Assembly: GCA_029882015.1 (NCBI GenBank) | Contig: JAOULM010000001.1 | Coordinates: 1 to 33,991, forward strand | Direction: 5' to 3' | Source: Candidatus Nomurabacteria bacterium | GTDB lineage: Bacteria; Patescibacteriota; Minisyncoccia; Phycocordibacterales; UBA1006 | Length of the DNA stretch: 33,991 nt | In this document: positions 1 to 26,640 of the stretch, one piece after another | How the letters are laid out: each line of letters starts with the position of its first letter | Position numbering within the stretch: the stretch's first letter is position 1 | Notes under the pieces: generated by a model | Told to the model about the DNA's origin: nothing | What the model saw: only the letters and a program-made list of their open reading frames with translations | The model's database searches: none | Position numbers and translations under genes: made by a program

Positions 1-984
1 TATAAAACTGGGGTTGCTGATTATATGATTGCGGAATACCGATCGGGACGAACCCCCAACCCAGACGTCATGTGTAATCGCGAAGTAAAATTTGGAGGGT
101 TTTTGGATTGGGCGCTGGAACGTGGAGCAGATTTTGTTGCGACAGGGCATTATGCGCAAGTCACCACTTCCTCCTCCCCTGATGCAGGGGAGGTGCCGAG
201 GCACGAGGCGGAGGGGTATCAAAAAACCAATACCCCCCAGCCCTTCGGGCTGCCCCCCTACATAGGGGGGCAGGCGCGGTTTCAGCTCTTGCGTGGAATT
301 GACCCAGGCAAAGACCAATCATATTTTTTGTGGACCTTGACCCAGGATCAGTTGAAACATATTTTGTTTCCAGTCGGACATCTAATAAAAGACGAAACAC
401 GGAAACTTGCCGAGAAATACGAACTACCAACGGCCACAAAAAAAGATTCCCAAGGGGTTTGTTTTATTGGTGAAATAGATATGAAGGAATTTCTGGGGCA
501 TTATATTAACCACCAACCAGGGGATGTATTGAATACTGACGGAAAGATTATTGGACATCATGATGGAGCATTGTTTTTTACATTGGGTGAACGTCATGGA
601 TTTACAATCCTATCCAAAGGAACAGACGAGAGTCGGTATTATGTGGTGGATAAAGATATCAAGAAAAATACTATTACCGTCTCTGAAAATATTGATAATC
701 AAAAAGAAAATTATGGAAAAGGGCAACAAATAACCATAACCAATATAAACATGATTTCCGAGCCACTTCGTCCTGGGCAATCATACGATGCACAGATTCG
801 TTACCATGGTGAAATCAAGAAAATGACACTCAGCGGAATCAAGGGTGATACCGCAAGTGTGGTTCTGGCTGGTCACGACGCAACGATTGCCCCTGGGCAA
901 TCGTTGGTTATCTACCTGCCTGGCGAACAGTCGGGTAATGGTGATATTTGTTTGGGTGGTGGAGTGATCGATTCTGTCGCCTAG
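1..984 (+). CDS. mnmA: tRNA-specific 2-thiouridylase MnmA, 5'-truncated by window edge; carries an in-frame repeat insertion (see repeat 169-275)
   Basis: Frame 1 is open from nt 1. Motifs GRTPNPDVMCN, FVATGHYA, LLRGIDPGKDQSYFLW and DSQGVCFIGE are typical of MnmA. Stop TAG at 982-984. Confidence 0.9.
   Translation, partial: YKTGVADYMIAEYRSGRTPNPDVMCNREVKFGGFLDWALERGADFVATGHYAQVTTSSSPDAGEVPRHEAEGYQKTNTPQPFGLPPYIGGQARFQLLRGIDPGKDQSYFLWTLTQDQLKHILFPVGHLIKDETRKLAEKYELPTATKKDSQGVCFIGEIDMKEFLGHYINHQPGDVLNTDGKIIGHHDGALFFTLGERHGFTILSKGTDESRYYVVDKDIKKNTITVSENIDNQKENYGKGQQITITNINMISEPLRPGQSYDAQIRYHGEIKKMTLSGIKGDTASVVLAGHDATIAPGQSLVIYLPGEQSGNGDICLGGGVIDSVA
169..275 (+). repeat. GC-rich palindromic repeat pair (forward unit 169-219, inverted unit 231-275) inside the mnmA reading frame
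   Basis: tcctcctcccctgatgcaggggaggtgccgaggcacgaggcggaggggtat closely matches 10451-10500, 14890-14935 and 30603-30647. The second half is an inverted, diverged copy. Confidence 0.85.
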
Positions 985-21419: not shown

Positions 21420-22865
21420 TTAGAATCCATCAACCATGTCTGCATCTGAGCTGGCGCCCATGCTAAAGTCATTAAAATCATTTTTTTCCAAGTCGCTAAA
21501 CGATGTTTTATCTCCATCGAAATACAACTCGACGTCACCCACGGCTCCGTTACGGTGTTTGGCGATAACGATGTCGGCGACACCTGGTCGGTCGGTGTCT
21601 GGGTTTACACGCTCCTCGCGGTGTACGAACATAACCACATCGGCATCTTGCTCTAGGGCCCCTGAATCACGCAGGTCAGACAGTCGTGGTTTCCCCCCAC
21701 GGGCCTCGACGGCACGCGAGAGCTGTGACAATGCCAATATGGGTACATCCAGCTCACGAGCAAGCCCCTTGATAGACCTGGAGATTTCGGATACCTGATT
21801 CACCATAGAATCATAGTTTTTTGTTGGGTGCATCAACTGCAAGTAGTCAATAATCAATAACCCTAAACCATGCTCGGCTTTCAGACGACGCGCAGTTGAT
21901 CGCATACGTAGAACATTGTTTCCTGGTTGATCATCGATAAAAATTGGTGCAGATGACATAGTGCTCATGGCGTCTTGGATTTTCAAAAAATCGTCTTCTT
22001 TTAATCCTGTACCTGTTCGCATTTTCCATGCGTCGACGCCGGCCTGGGCCGATAACATTCGGTCAACCAATGATCCGGCGCTCATCTCCAGAGAGAAAAA
22101 TCCAACAGGAATATTATGTTCGACAGATGCCTTGCGGGCAATATCCAGCGCAAACGCTGTCTTACCCATGGATGGTCGTCCCGCCAACAAGATCATGTCA
22201 GATTTTTGCAAACCAGATAACATCTTGTCGATGTCTTTGAATCCTGTGGGTACTCCGCGCAGTCCTTCTTTGGCTTCGTGTAATTTTTCTATGCGGTCCC
22301 ACGCCTCGGGTAACAATGTTTTGATACCGATAAATCTGTCTGTGTGATGGGCTGCAGCGGTAACCGCAAAGACTGCTTTTTCTGCGGTATCCAAAACCAT
22401 TTCAATATCATCTTTTTCGTTGAACCCTAGCTCGGTCAACAGGTCACCCGTGTTGATCAGCTCACGCAACAGATGTTTCCGAGAAACAACACCAGCATAA
22501 TGGTTTACGTTTGTGGATGTTGGAACAGATGCACTAATATCTGCCAAATACGAAACACCGCCAATCATATCCAAATGATTTTTCTCGCGTAGTCGGTTGG
22601 ATACCGATACGGTGTCGATGGGTTCTCCTTTGTTGCTCAGCTCGACCATGGTTTGGAAAATCATTCGATGTTTTTCTGCATAAAAAGAATCCTCGGAAAC
22701 AATATCCAGGATATCATTCAATGCTACAGGCCGTAGCATAATAGAACCCAACAGAGCCTTTTCCGAGTTCAAATCCTGTGGTGGCACACGCAAAGGCGAC
22801 ATCGTTGATTTTTGCGCCTGACTATCATGTGATTGATTTTGGTTGTTGTATGGTTGCTTGGACAT
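21420..22865 (-). CDS. dnaB: replicative DNA helicase DnaB
   Basis: PPQDLNSEKALLGSIMLRP, Walker A LAGRPSMGKTAFALD, LLIIDYLQLM, LSQLSRAVE. Start set at MSKQ (22865) because an extended -10 (TGcTACAAT, 22874-22882) lies 8 nt upstream. The ORF track start at 22883 is an alternative. Confidence 0.93.
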   Translation of the reverse strand: MSKQPYNNQNQSHDSQAQKSTMSPLRVPPQDLNSEKALLGSIMLRPVALNDILDIVSEDSFYAEKHRMIFQTMVELSNKGEPIDTVSVSNRLREKNHLDMIGGVSYLADISASVPTSTNVNHYAGVVSRKHLLRELINTGDLLTELGFNEKDDIEMVLDTAEKAVFAVTAAAHHTDRFIGIKTLLPEAWDRIEKLHEAKEGLRGVPTGFKDIDKMLSGLQKSDMILLAGRPSMGKTAFALDIARKASVEHNIPVGFFSLEMSAGSLVDRMLSAQAGVDAWKMRTGTGLKEDDFLKIQDAMSTMSSAPIFIDDQPGNNVLRMRSTARRLKAEHGLGLLIIDYLQLMHPTKNYDSMVNQVSEISRSIKGLARELDVPILALSQLSRAVEARGGKPRLSDLRDSGALEQDADVVMFVHREERVNPDTDRPGVADIVIAKHRNGAVGDVELYFDGDKTSFSDLEKNDFNDFSMGASSDADMVDGF

Positions 22866-22873
22866 GTAAATTG

Positions 22874-22882
22874 ATTGTAGCA
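22874..22882 (-). promoter_or_regulatory. extended -10 promoter of dnaB (TGcTACAAT on minus strand); ATG 22865 is 8 nt downstream
   Basis: Plus-strand attgtagca at 22874-22882. Confidence 0.45.
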
Positions 22883-22883
22883 C

Positions 22884-22923
22884 GCTAGGTTTTATTGGTT
22901 TTTAAAAAACCAATAAAACCTAG
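22884..22923. promoter_or_regulatory. perfect 40-bp palindrome (20+20, no spacer) immediately upstream of the dnaB -10 element
   Basis: gctaggttttattggttttt / aaaaaccaataaaacctagc, read directly from the sequence. Confidence 0.7.
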
Positions 22924-22958
22924 CTGGGGATTGTGTGGATAGAGACTTTTTAAAAGAC

Positions 22959-22987
22959 TTGACAAATCTATCTAAACATGCTATACT
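22959..22987 (+). promoter_or_regulatory. near-consensus promoter of RNA1 (TTGACA-17-TATACT)
   Basis: Hexamers at 22959-22964 and 22982-22987. Confidence 0.6.
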
Positions 22988-22993
22988 CATTTT

Positions 22994-23294
22994 CAATGGG
23001 TGGATTATTTGCTTGTCACAGTGACAGGGGATAATACCGTAAAACCCAGTATGTACCGGTTAATTCCTCCCCGACGTAGCGGGAGGTCATCAGTTGGTTA
23101 TGACAGAAACAAGCGTGCGAGGGTTTGAGCCTTATGACCATGTATGAGAAAGTTATTGCCGAGCATAACGACTGATAAGCGATCAAGGTTCCGCCAAGCT
23201 TACGGCACATATGATTGCTGTAAGTAGAGCAACAAGGGAACCTTTTCGGGAAATGCCCCCATCAATTTTTTTGATGGGGGTTTTGTTTTTTTTT
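22994..23294 (+). ncRNA. unassigned ~300-nt sRNA-like transcription unit (RNA1)
   Basis: Consensus promoter TTGACA-17-TATACT (22959-22987) and strong terminator CCCCCATCAA-ttttt-TTGATGGGGG plus T-run (23256-23294). Internal helices include AAGGTTCC/GGAACCTT and CCTCCC/GGGAGG. No credible CDS. Confidence 0.55.
23256..23294 (+). terminator. terminator of RNA1
   Basis: CCCCCATCAA-ttttt-TTGATGGGGG followed by TTTTGTTTTTTTTT. Confidence 0.8.
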
Positions 23295-23320
23295 GATAAA
23301 TAAAAATATTCTGATACTAT
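23293..23320 (+). promoter_or_regulatory. promoter of RNA2 (TTGATA-16-TACTAT)
   Basis: Hexamers at 23293-23298 and 23315-23320. Confidence 0.45.
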
Positions 23321-23326
23321 TGTGAT

Positions 23327-23536
23327 GTGGGTGAGTAACAAATCGTGCACCCCACGAGATGTCCCACACGCCCTGGAGGTAATGAGCCCAGGGCATCTTG
23401 GAAACCATAGATAGATATAATATCTATCTCAAATATAAGAGGGCGAGCTGTTCTGGATAACAGGGCGGCTCCAATAACGGCATAGGGCAAATGAACCTGT
23501 GTCTAGGACCCCAGAATTTTTGGGGTCTGTTTTTTT
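23327..23536 (+). ncRNA. unassigned ~210-nt sRNA or cis-leader upstream of trpS (RNA2)
   Basis: Promoter TTGATA-16-TACTAT (23293-23320). Hairpins GCCCTGG/CCAGGGC, AGATAGATA/TATCTATCT and CTGTT/AACAG. Terminator GACCCCA/TGGGGTC plus T7 (23507-23536). Confidence 0.5.
23507..23536 (+). terminator. terminator (or attenuator) of RNA2, 36 nt before trpS
   Basis: GACCCCA-gaatttt-TGGGGTC followed by TGTTTTTTT. Confidence 0.7.
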
Positions 23537-23563
23537 ACACAAAATTTTCAAATTTGGTACAAT
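23535..23563 (+). promoter_or_regulatory. possible proximal trpS promoter (TTACAC-17-TGgTACAAT); ATG 9 nt after the -10
   Basis: Hexamers at 23535-23540 and 23558-23563. Confidence 0.45.
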
Positions 23564-23572
23564 AGCAACTAT

Positions 23573-24538
23573 ATGGAAAAGAAAATTTTAGTATCAGGGG
23601 TCAAGCCAACAGGGCGTCCACATTTGGGGAATTATTTTGGTGCAATGAAACAATTTGTTGAATTACAGAACGAATATGATTCATACATTTTTTTGGCAAA
23701 CTTGCATGCATTAACAACAATCCAGGATGGCGAAACATTGCGCGAATTATCCCGCGAACTTCTTCTTGACTATTTGGCAATCGGTATCGACCCAGAAAAT
23801 GTTGTGATCTTTAATCAGTCAGATGTAAAACAACACGCTGAATTGGGATGGATATTTAACTGTATTACAACTATGCCGTATTTGATGCGCGCGCATTCAT
23901 TTAAAGACGCCGAAGCTAAAAACAAAGACATCAACGTTGGGGTGTTTGATTATCCAATGCTGATGGCAGCAGATATATTATTGTACGGTGCGGACGTAGT
24001 CCCAGTAGGTAAAGACCAGAAACAACATATCGAATTCACGCGCGATACTGCGCAGAAATTTAACAGTATTTTTGGTGAAACTTTTCAATTACCCAAAGCA
24101 CTCATTTTAGAATCTACCGAAACAATCCCCGGAACCGACGGACAAAAAATGTCCAAATCATACGGGAATACCATTCCATTGTTTGGAACTGACGACGAAA
24201 TCAAAACAGCAGTGATGAGCATCGTCACAGGATCTAATCCAAAAAACACACCGAACGATCCAACCGACACATTGTTTACTATTTTGGAACTATTTTTGAA
24301 TGACGATGACACGCCATATGTCCGCGGAAAATATGAATCAGGTGAAATGGGATACAAAGAAACCAAAGAACGTCTAATAACAGAAATTATTGAATTCGTG
24401 GAACCATTGCGAAAACGTCGCGCCGAATTTGCTCGCAGCCAAACACTACTCGACGAGATTCTGCGACAGGGAGCCGCCCGAGCCCGCGCCCGAGCTGAAG
24501 GGGTGATGGAAATCGTCCGCCACAAAGTAGGGATTTAA
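23573..24538 (+). CDS. trpS: tryptophanyl-tRNA synthetase
   Basis: GVKPTGRPHLGNYFGA (HIGH-like), ADILLYGADVVPVGKDQKQH, KMSKS. Confidence 0.95.
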   Translation: MEKKILVSGVKPTGRPHLGNYFGAMKQFVELQNEYDSYIFLANLHALTTIQDGETLRELSRELLLDYLAIGIDPENVVIFNQSDVKQHAELGWIFNCITTMPYLMRAHSFKDAEAKNKDINVGVFDYPMLMAADILLYGADVVPVGKDQKQHIEFTRDTAQKFNSIFGETFQLPKALILESTETIPGTDGQKMSKSYGNTIPLFGTDDEIKTAVMSIVTGSNPKNTPNDPTDTLFTILELFLNDDDTPYVRGKYESGEMGYKETKERLITEIIEFVEPLRKRRAEFARSQTLLDEILRQGAARARARAEGVMEIVRHKVGI

Positions 24539-26407: not shown

Positions 26408-26422
26408 AATATTAAAATTAAA

Positions 26423-26449
26423 ACGGACACAATTTGTGTCCGTTTTTTT
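26423..26449 (+). terminator. terminator after the ABC exporter gene
   Basis: ACGGACACA-att-TGTGTCCGT followed by T7. Confidence 0.8.
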
Positions 26450-26450
26450 A

Positions 26451-26479
26451 TTGCACAAATTTGGTTATTCTGGCATAAT
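26451..26479 (+). promoter_or_regulatory. promoter of the T-box leader (TTGCAC-17-TGgCATAAT)
   Basis: Hexamers at 26451-26456 and 26474-26479. Confidence 0.55.
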
Positions 26480-26485
26480 TGGGGT

Positions 26486-26640
26486 ATTCACTGATGAGCC
26501 TGGATGATAACAGGCGAGGTGTCAATTTTATATAAAGCGCCTTTTGCTACGTGTCGAGCGGCAAGGGGAATCGAGGTGGCACCGCGGATTTATATTCGTC
26601 CTCATAAATTATTCAGTTAGTTTGTGGGGAATTTTTTTAC
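26486..26640 (+). promoter_or_regulatory. T-box riboswitch leader (compact), apparent Asp specifier, controlling hydrolase-aspS
   Basis: Antiterminator: GAGG (26573-26576), 7-nt bulge UGGCACC (26577-26583, canonical UGGNACC), helix GCGGAU/AUUCGU, then CCUC (26600-26603). Competing terminator CCUCAUAAA/UUUGUGGGG plus U7 (26600-26638). 5' hairpin has a K-turn-like UGAUGA/CGAG base and the loop GAUGAUAA. Confidence 0.8.

Follow-up and report, generated by a model that had tools for sequence, protein, structure and literature searches.

A candidate structured small RNA gene between dnaB and trpS in a Candidatus Nomurabacteria genome

Architecture of the dnaB-trpS intergenic region

The window studied here is a stretch of 33,991 nucleotides (nt) of genomic DNA from a Candidatus Nomurabacteria bacterium (GenBank contig JAOULM010000001.1), a member of the Patescibacteria. 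It corresponds to contig C41 of a genome assembly of 651 kb that comprises 66 contigs and is 97.7% complete. We focused on RNA2, a predicted structured RNA that is encoded directly upstream of trpS, the gene for tryptophan--tRNA ligase (TrpRS). A prediction made earlier from the DNA sequence alone (referred to below as the original prediction) had offered two readings of this element: a free small RNA (sRNA), or an attenuator of trpS that does not belong to the T-box class. The analysis reported here favors the first of these readings, with trpS expressed from a proximal promoter of its own.

The 690-nt gap in which RNA2 resides is flanked by the divergently oriented genes dnaB (minus strand) and trpS (plus strand). 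It holds three closely packed plus-strand units: promoter P1, RNA1 and terminator T1; promoter P2, RNA2 and terminator T2; and promoter P3 followed by trpS (Table 1). RNA2 thus occupies the middle position. Judged with a crude mask of open reading frames (ORFs), this is the 11th longest non-coding gap of the genome; several of the longer ones contain rRNA, RNase P, and tmRNA. We found no remnant of a neighboring protein gene in the gap, and a comparison by blastn-short and nhmmer revealed no homology between RNA1 and RNA2.

RNA2, together with its terminator, folds at -85 kcal/mol (z = -5.7) into a row of five hairpins, which take up about 180 nt and are followed by the terminator stem. When the terminator is left out, the z-score is -5.4 for the plus strand versus -2.5 for the reverse complement. 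The 75-nt 3' half of the molecule, which is formed by hairpins H4 and H5 and is rich in G-U pairs, yields -6.4 on the plus strand versus +0.2 on the minus strand. As a control, we folded 40 random windows of the genome and obtained a mean z-score of -0.8 with a standard deviation of 1.35. Since the plus-strand z-scores of RNA2 lie far below those of its reverse complement and of the random windows, we regard its fold as real and as a property of the plus-strand RNA, not as that of a DNA palindrome; hairpin H3, which is a perfect palindrome, is the exception. That the 3' half folds only on the plus strand is due to the G-U pairs of H4 and H5. The fold of the 5' hairpin H1 competes with a pairing of GUGGGUG with CACCCCAC that had been proposed in the original prediction.

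The GC content of RNA2 (47%) exceeds that of the genome (about 40%). We detected no coding signal in RNA2; its ORFs comprise at most 57 amino acids (aa), and the small ORFs are without a Pfam match. RNA2 is also a single-copy element: a search of the organism's own genome with nhmmer returned RNA2 alone, and we found no module that it has in common with the other hairpin elements of this genome.

Table 1. Positions of the features discussed in the text (numbering of the window, except for the unit of genus g16, which is given in the numbering of the respective loci)
Feature	Position	Strand	Description and basis
dnaB	21420-22883	minus	TIGR00665, 521 bits
P1	22959-22987	plus	RNA1 promoter, TTGACA-17-TGcTATACT; consensus scan
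RNA1	22959-23292	plus	neighboring unit of about 300 nt; promoter P1 and terminator T1
T1	23255-23281	plus	RNA1 terminator, followed by a T-run that abuts P2
P2	23293-23320	plus	candidate RNA2 promoter, TTGATA-16-TGaTACTAT; consensus scan, 9/12 plus TG
RNA2	23327-23536	plus	predicted transcript of about 200-210 nt; start inferred from the -10 box, end given by the T-run of the terminator
H1	23326-23368	plus	5' hairpin with internal loops, outer UGUGGG/CCCACA, inner UCGUG/CACGA; minimum free energy and centroid folds
H2	23370-23394	plus	7-bp GC-rich hairpin GCCCUGG/CCAGGGC, GGAGGU at the stem-loop junction; minimum free energy and centroid folds
H3	23409-23429	plus	perfect AT-rich 10-bp palindrome AGATAGATAT-A-ATATCTATCT, TATAAT at the apex; fold and repeat check
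H4	23445-23471	plus	11-bp hairpin, four G-U pairs, GAUAA loop, includes CUGGAU (23453-23458); fold
H5	23479-23503	plus	8-bp hairpin with G-U pairs, 9-nt loop; fold
T2	23506-23536	plus	intrinsic terminator, 10-bp stem and 3-nt loop (23506-23528), then G and T7; unidirectional
P3	23534-23563	plus	trpS promoter, extended -10 box TGgTACAAT at 23555-23563, TTTACA/TACACA upstream; 12.6 bits
trpS	23573-24538	plus	tryptophan--tRNA ligase, 321 aa; TIGR00233, 301 bits; no Shine-Dalgarno sequence
g16 unit	L028:1125-1445; L023:~280-600		unit of about 290 nt in genus g16 (same family as the source organism); own promoter, 15-bp terminator

The signals that delimit RNA2 were found where the original prediction had located them. 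Its terminator ends 36 nt before the ATG codon of trpS, and its promoter P2 possesses the two hexamers described earlier, to which we add a TG extension of the -10 box. Transcription from P2 would start at about 23325-23328. The evidence on P2 as a promoter is mixed. We counted 42 genomic copies of the composite motif TTGAYA-(12-15)-TGnTAnnnT, compared to 6.8 +/- 3.0 in shuffled sequences; this about sixfold enriched motif represents a second class of promoters that precedes tmRNA, RNA1, and leadered genes. The same box as that of P2, TGATACTAT, precedes a tRNA-Arg gene, and a tRNA-Ile gene is preceded by TTGATA-17-TGaTACACT. Because P2 is situated directly behind T1 and in front of a strand-specific RNA that ends in T2, a chance match is unlikely (about 10^-5 per position), although this does not constitute proof. 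The TATAAT sequence at the apex of H3 (23416-23421) is a perfect -10 box that scores 9.6 bits; from it, transcription could begin at position 23428 or thereabouts and yield a shorter RNA (about 108 nt) that would consist of H4, H5, and T2. The string ATCTATCT, which H3 and the RNA1 promoter have in common, is a chance likeness, with 24 occurrences genome-wide versus 38 expected.

Several additional observations on promoters were made in the course of these scans. P1 shares 93% identity over 29 nt (TTGACAAATCTATCTAAA.ATG.TATACT) with the promoter that precedes a leadered protein gene elsewhere in the genome (C11:7236-7264), and this likeness suggests copied promoter modules. Several promoters of the second class carry a recurring downstream module, AAGAGGTACAAAT; this same promoter on C11 and a site on C43 (7238-7266) are examples. 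At two further sites (C23:7662-7735 and C49:18548-18610), a full consensus TTGACA-17/18-TGnTAnAAT is followed within about 15-20 nt by a GC hairpin of the terminator type with its T-run; the resulting promoter-to-terminator units, very short at about 40-50 nt, would lack an ORF.

The trpS promoter and tests for a T-box or attenuator

To judge -10 boxes on the organism's own terms, we built a matrix from the leaderless promoters of this genome, with trpS left out. Among 463 long ORFs, 130 (28%) possess a box that matches TATAAT in at least five of six positions and ends 5-10 nt ahead of the first ATG; these distances peak at 6-9 nt, where such boxes are about four- to sixfold more frequent than in the background. 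In just 34 of the 463 (7%), a tetramer resembling a Shine-Dalgarno sequence is present within 20 nt upstream. Alignment of the leaderless promoters yields TGgTATAAT, with T at position -15 in 67% and G at position -14 in 59% of the cases, and contains no information in the -35 region. Leaderless mRNAs hence appear to dominate in this genome, and two predicted classes of promoters coexist in it: leaderless promoters with an extended -10 box, and promoters that combine a -35 box with an extended -10 box.

On the leaderless matrix, P3 attains 12.6 bits, in comparison with 9.9 bits for the promoter of dnaB, 9.5 bits for P1, and 5.4 bits for P2. Scores of at least 10 bits are reached at just about 250 of 1.3 million genome positions, and the -10 box of P3 is among the best of them. 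It ends 9 nt before the ATG codon of trpS, and at its upstream edge P3 overlaps with the T-run of T2. In related trpS loci, a -10-like box lies 5-10 nt before an in-frame start ATG in 59 of 107 cases, 37 of them with a TGn extension; a control position 300 nt inside the gene gave 4 of 107. From the score of P3, the missing Shine-Dalgarno sequence, the genome-wide habit, and the related loci, we conclude that trpS is expressed, both here and in relatives, from its own promoter as a leaderless or nearly leaderless message. First genes of this genome are usually expressed in the same manner. The predicted trpS mRNA carries either no leader or one of 1-3 nt, and trpS would consequently not be fed through RNA2. 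The proximal promoter that the original prediction had entertained as a competing possibility is thus supported, and with it the view of RNA2 as an independent sRNA.

The distance between T2 and the trpS start codon had been taken as the geometry of a cis-acting attenuator. A survey of 129 leaderless-type genes of the organism does not sustain this view. A terminator-like hairpin is located within 140 nt upstream in 34 of these genes, and in 18 of the 129 it ends 25-60 nt before the ATG. Since a leaderless promoter has to lie no more than about 40 nt from the start codon, the end of any unit upstream of it will fall a few dozen nt before that codon. The geometry is therefore generic, and the position of T2 reflects ordinary compact packing and is not a sign of attenuation.

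Searches for known RNA families were equally negative. With Rfam 15, we obtained no match at the gathering threshold anywhere in the window. At E<=10, a scan of positions 22850-23650 found no T-box, no Trp_leader, and no other cis-regulatory family, and returned sub-threshold noise only (Spot 42 and PyrG-leader on the RNA1 terminator; poplar-1 with 19.8 of 110 bits). The same T-box model recovers the two true T-boxes of the genome, one on contig C54 (50.8 bits) and one in the aspS leader of the window studied here (26409-26606; 38.4 bits). The latter displays a textbook T-box core (GAGGUGGCACCGCGG, with the core GGUGGCACCGCG), and RNA2 lacks the conserved T-box sequence GGUGGNACCGCG, in which a UGGN bulge binds the 3' end of the tRNA. 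Its nearest T-box-like string, UUGGAAACC, is found at 23398-23406, and not at 23418-23426 as given before; it possesses an extra base and is not flanked by A1/A2 helices tied to the terminator. The CUGGAU string that had been placed at 23445-23450 is actually the one within H4 (Table 1). The 5' hairpin displays no UGG specifier in its loop, as the original prediction had rightly pointed out when it stated that RNA2 is not a canonical T-box. The tRNA-Trp of the organism has the anticodon CCA and the discriminator base G73; because of this discriminator, a T-box for tryptophan would need UGGC, a sequence that is absent from RNA2. Furthermore, RNA2 pairs with tRNA-Trp no better than its shuffled versions do, the duplex energy being equal to their mean.

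A structural link between RNA2 and Stem I of the aspS T-box had also been put forward. The strings on which it was based are indeed present: TGATG (23323-23327) and CGAGATGTC (23353-23361) at RNA2, and TGATGA...CGAGGTGTC (26492-26524) in the aspS leader. For the aspS leader, a proper kink-turn can be drawn (C-stem CACU/GGUG, bulge GAU, tandem G-A/A-G pairs, and helix GCCUG/CAGGC). In RNA2, no register of tandem G-A/A-G pairs fits beside a helix, so that there is no workable kink-turn. Its 5' strand, TGATG, and the stem required on the 5' side of this strand would not even be part of the RNA because of the transcript start predicted from P2. In its loose form, TGATG...CGAGRTG, the pattern recurs by chance at about 15 genomic sites, most of them within genes. 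A link between RNA2 and the aspS T-box is not supported.

To probe for an antiterminator, we folded RNA2 with nt 1-18, 30-60, 75-105, or 1-105 forced to be single-stranded, and also truncated it before the 3' strand of T2. Two of these masks mimic a ribosome stalled at the Trp codon (codon 2) of a 29-codon ORF (nt 1-18) or at the stop codon of this ORF (nt 75-105). Under every mask and truncation, the pair probabilities of T2 remained between 0.68 and 1.0, and we found no competitor for its 5' strand. A degenerate or novel leader that senses tRNA or tryptophan, as the original prediction had suggested, finds no backing in these results.

Comparison with the known systems leads to the same picture. 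RNA2 resembles a T-box (RF00230) in that it is a structured, terminator-ended RNA on the same strand as, and in front of, an aminoacyl-tRNA synthetase gene, and in the short strings TGATG ... CGAGRTGTC shared with the Stem I frame of aspS. It differs in the absence of a model match, core, specifier, UGGC, and antiterminator, in a kink-turn strand that lies before the transcript start, and in a trpS promoter that follows the terminator. With the trpL attenuator of Escherichia coli (RF00513), it has in common a promoter, a short ORF beginning with Met-Trp, and a terminator; it directly precedes trpS, in a host from the candidate phyla radiation (CPR) with leaderless mRNAs. In contrast to trpL, the ORF contains a single Trp codon (codon 2), mutually exclusive hairpins are missing, 92 nt separate the stop codon from the terminator, no Rfam match exists, and the element is not conserved.

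Other housekeeping RNAs could be set aside as well. RNase P RNA and tmRNA are encoded elsewhere (on contigs C49 and C31, respectively), and neither 6S RNA nor the small or large signal recognition particle (SRP) RNA was found elsewhere in this genome. RNA2 is similar in length to 6S RNA but forms a row of hairpins, to which the rod with a central bubble does not fit. It has no helix-8 motif of the SRP RNA, and no SRP RNA is expected here since Ffh and FtsY were not found. In detail, the genome contains neither an Ffh M domain (PF02978) nor an SRP54-type GTPase (PF00448, TIGR00064), and a DTAGR motif is absent from all reading frames. SRP RNA itself was not detected in this genome nor in 36 members of its family. 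In 60 relatives and 150 further members of the phylum (210 Patescibacteria), our searches for SRP proteins gave marginal P-loop matches only, and all 14 control genomes were matched. These negatives agree with the reported absence of SRP subunits from many CPR bacteria (PMC8080830).

Distribution of RNA2 and the slot upstream of trpS

We searched for homologues of RNA2 by blastn in 60 relatives, by blastn-short and nhmmer against about 120 fetched loci, with a single-sequence covariance model in 100 relatives, by scanning 185,579 species genomes for exact patterns, and in collections of phages and plasmids. None of these searches, which included about 110 trpS loci, returned a match. The closest TrpRS proteins, retrieved from JGI metagenomes and a collection of 5.8 billion protein clusters, are 64-66% identical to that of our organism. 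Because the collections hold no genome close enough for an analysis of covariation, we attribute the lack of demonstrable conservation to sampling.

The divergent arrangement of dnaB and trpS is common in relatives, where the two genes are about 50-170 nt apart. Among about 100 relatives, trpS is mostly preceded by a gap of less than 100 nt, and that of the window studied here is the longest of all. The comparison of trpS upstream regions that the original prediction had recommended revealed no conserved leader in these relatives; among the 15 with longer gaps, none has a T-box before trpS. A T-box-like match of 44 bits, below the gathering threshold, is located directly downstream of trpS in a relative from a microbial-mat metagenome (L083:1660-1797); it presumably belongs to the leader of the gene that follows and has no role in regulating trpS.

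Two other lineages, the genus g16 (loci L028 and L023) and the metagenome locus L104, possess promoter-to-terminator units in the same slot that are unrelated to RNA2 and are followed by a leaderless trpS promoter. The unit of g16 (Table 1) shows 86% identity between two species, in which blocks such as GACACTCTGGATTGAGACCCGAGGGGTGTC are invariant. Its predicted fold is kept: of 62 pairs, two show compensatory and five one-sided changes, and none is broken. Rfam yields no match to it at E<=0.01, and its range is limited to g16. The L104 unit (720-960) contains an AAGAGG sequence similar to a Shine-Dalgarno motif, after which come an ORF with about 43 codons and then a terminator; its product may be a leadered protein of about 43 aa, in which case the slot would hold a small, self-contained gene cassette and not an RNA.

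Two possible origins of RNA2 were rejected. It is not the remnant of a pseudogene, since tblastn searches in which the genes found before trpS in relatives served as queries yielded only E>0.2, and the gene in question is located on contig C65. Nor is there a sign of a miniature inverted-repeat transposable element or other insertion, given that neither terminal repeats nor target duplications flank it.

Interpretation of RNA2

Taken together, we interpret RNA2 as an independently transcribed, lineage-specific gene for a structured sRNA of about 200-210 nt, a reading to which we assign a probability of roughly 0.6 on the basis of the sequence analyses described above. It possesses a candidate promoter (with the caveat of a weak -10 box) and a Rho-independent terminator of its own, contains no credible ORF, and is folded more strongly on its transcribed strand than expected by chance. 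RNA2 shares a sigma-70-type promoter, an intrinsic terminator, the absence of a notable ORF, and a strong fold with the classical stand-alone sRNA genes of bacteria. It differs from them in that we identified no conserved loop motif in it (e.g., an anti-Shine-Dalgarno loop), that its genome provides no Hfq or CsrA partner, and that the collections hold no relative in which a kept fold could show. It is fast-evolving or lineage-restricted and belongs to no Rfam family, and its intergenic slot, next to housekeeping genes, is variable. Given the separate, leaderless start of trpS from P3, RNA2 is most likely not a switch that responds to tRNA or tryptophan.

Several findings weigh against an sRNA gene. 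A -10 box with the score of P2 is encountered about once per 300 nt, and the TTGATA subset of the second promoter class is not enriched, its four genomic instances equaling the chance expectation. The searches described above returned no homologue, so that a function of RNA2 draws no support from covariation or conservation. Hairpin-rich spacers are common in this genome, and part of the structure could therefore be non-functional. Hfq and CsrA were not found in the genome, and a search for mRNA targets at 710 gene starts gave a best duplex of -53.7, which is within the range of shuffled sequences (-50 to -61). A role as a sponge for CsrA was rejected: RNA2 contains four GGA motifs, compared to an expectation of about three (our own count and estimate from the sequence), and there is no CsrA gene.

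In one alternative, RNA2 would be a hairpin-rich spacer that is selfish or without function, the remnant of a swapped intergenic cassette, in which the terminator merely serves the neighborhood and P2 matches by chance. We regard this as unlikely, while it ranks first among the alternatives. It would explain why RNA2 is found in this species only, why the gap before trpS is so long, as if something had been inserted there, and why P2 scores poorly. However, the strand-specific, G-U-rich fold argues for selection on the plus-strand RNA and not on DNA palindromes; RNA2 is present once, shares no module with other hairpin elements, is not bounded by repeats or duplications, and has a GC content above that of typical spacers. 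That RNA2 acts in cis on trpS, as an attenuator outside the T-box class or as a module of transcriptional interference in which conditional read-through of T2 sets the level of TrpRS, is in our judgment improbable. Such a role draws on the location of RNA2 on the same strand directly upstream of trpS, on the short distance between T2 and the ATG, on the overlap of the T-run with P3, and on the aspS T-box in the same window, which demonstrates that leaders of synthetase genes exist in this organism. Against it stand the lack of any T-box or cis-regulatory match and of the sequences needed to read tRNA-Trp, the unremarkable duplex energy with this tRNA, a terminator that is indifferent to masking, the top-scoring promoter of trpS, the missing leader in about 100 relatives, and an arrangement of terminator, promoter, and ATG that is generic.

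Two more specific proposals can be given little credence. In one of them, RNA2 would be a leaderless mini-gene of 29 codons (MWVSNKSC...), reaching from an ATG at 23325 to a TAG at 23412-23414, which encodes either a small protein or a leader peptide whose Trp codon is sensed by the ribosome. The ATG coincides approximately with the predicted start of the transcript, codon 2 specifies Trp, and genes of this genome are normally translated without a leader. Yet this ATG follows the -10 box by just 4 nt, compared to the genomic peak of 6-9 nt; only one of the 29 codons specifies Trp; 92 nt and two stable hairpins separate the stop codon from the terminator; masks that imitate a stalled or translating ribosome leave T2 intact; and the peptide has neither a family match nor a notable feature. 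It is similarly far-fetched that RNA2 is a promoter-proximal control element for a leaderless gene, in which the body of five hairpins senses a protein or small molecule and thereby sets read-through of T2. The further step, in which read-through would occlude P3 and replace the leaderless trpS mRNA by a 5'-extended form devoid of a Shine-Dalgarno sequence, and hence serve as a negative switch, appears just as remote to us. We know of no description of such a leaderless/leadered switch for aminoacyl-tRNA synthetase genes.

If RNA2 is an independent sRNA gene, T2 would have two effects. It would release RNA2 as a discrete RNA, and it would shield the trpS promoter from upstream transcription; without T2, read-through would be expected to produce a 5'-extended trpS message lacking a Shine-Dalgarno sequence and to run transcription across P3. 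Our best guess is that RNA2 would act in trans as a regulator that pairs with other RNAs or binds a protein. It may be one of a group of fast-evolving, optional orphan RNA units that occupy intergenic slots in the small genomes of Patescibacteria.

To our knowledge, the Patescibacteria are devoid of Hfq, CsrA, and most known regulators, and RNA-based regulation is almost unstudied in them. If expressed, RNA2 would add a case to the unclassified, fast-evolving sRNA genes of these ultra-small bacteria. The more useful result is the negative one: in genomes with leaderless genes and extended -10 promoters, a terminator some tens of bases ahead of a start codon marks a normal boundary between transcription units and should not be taken for an attenuator; heeding this should reduce the number of false riboswitch calls in CPR genomes.

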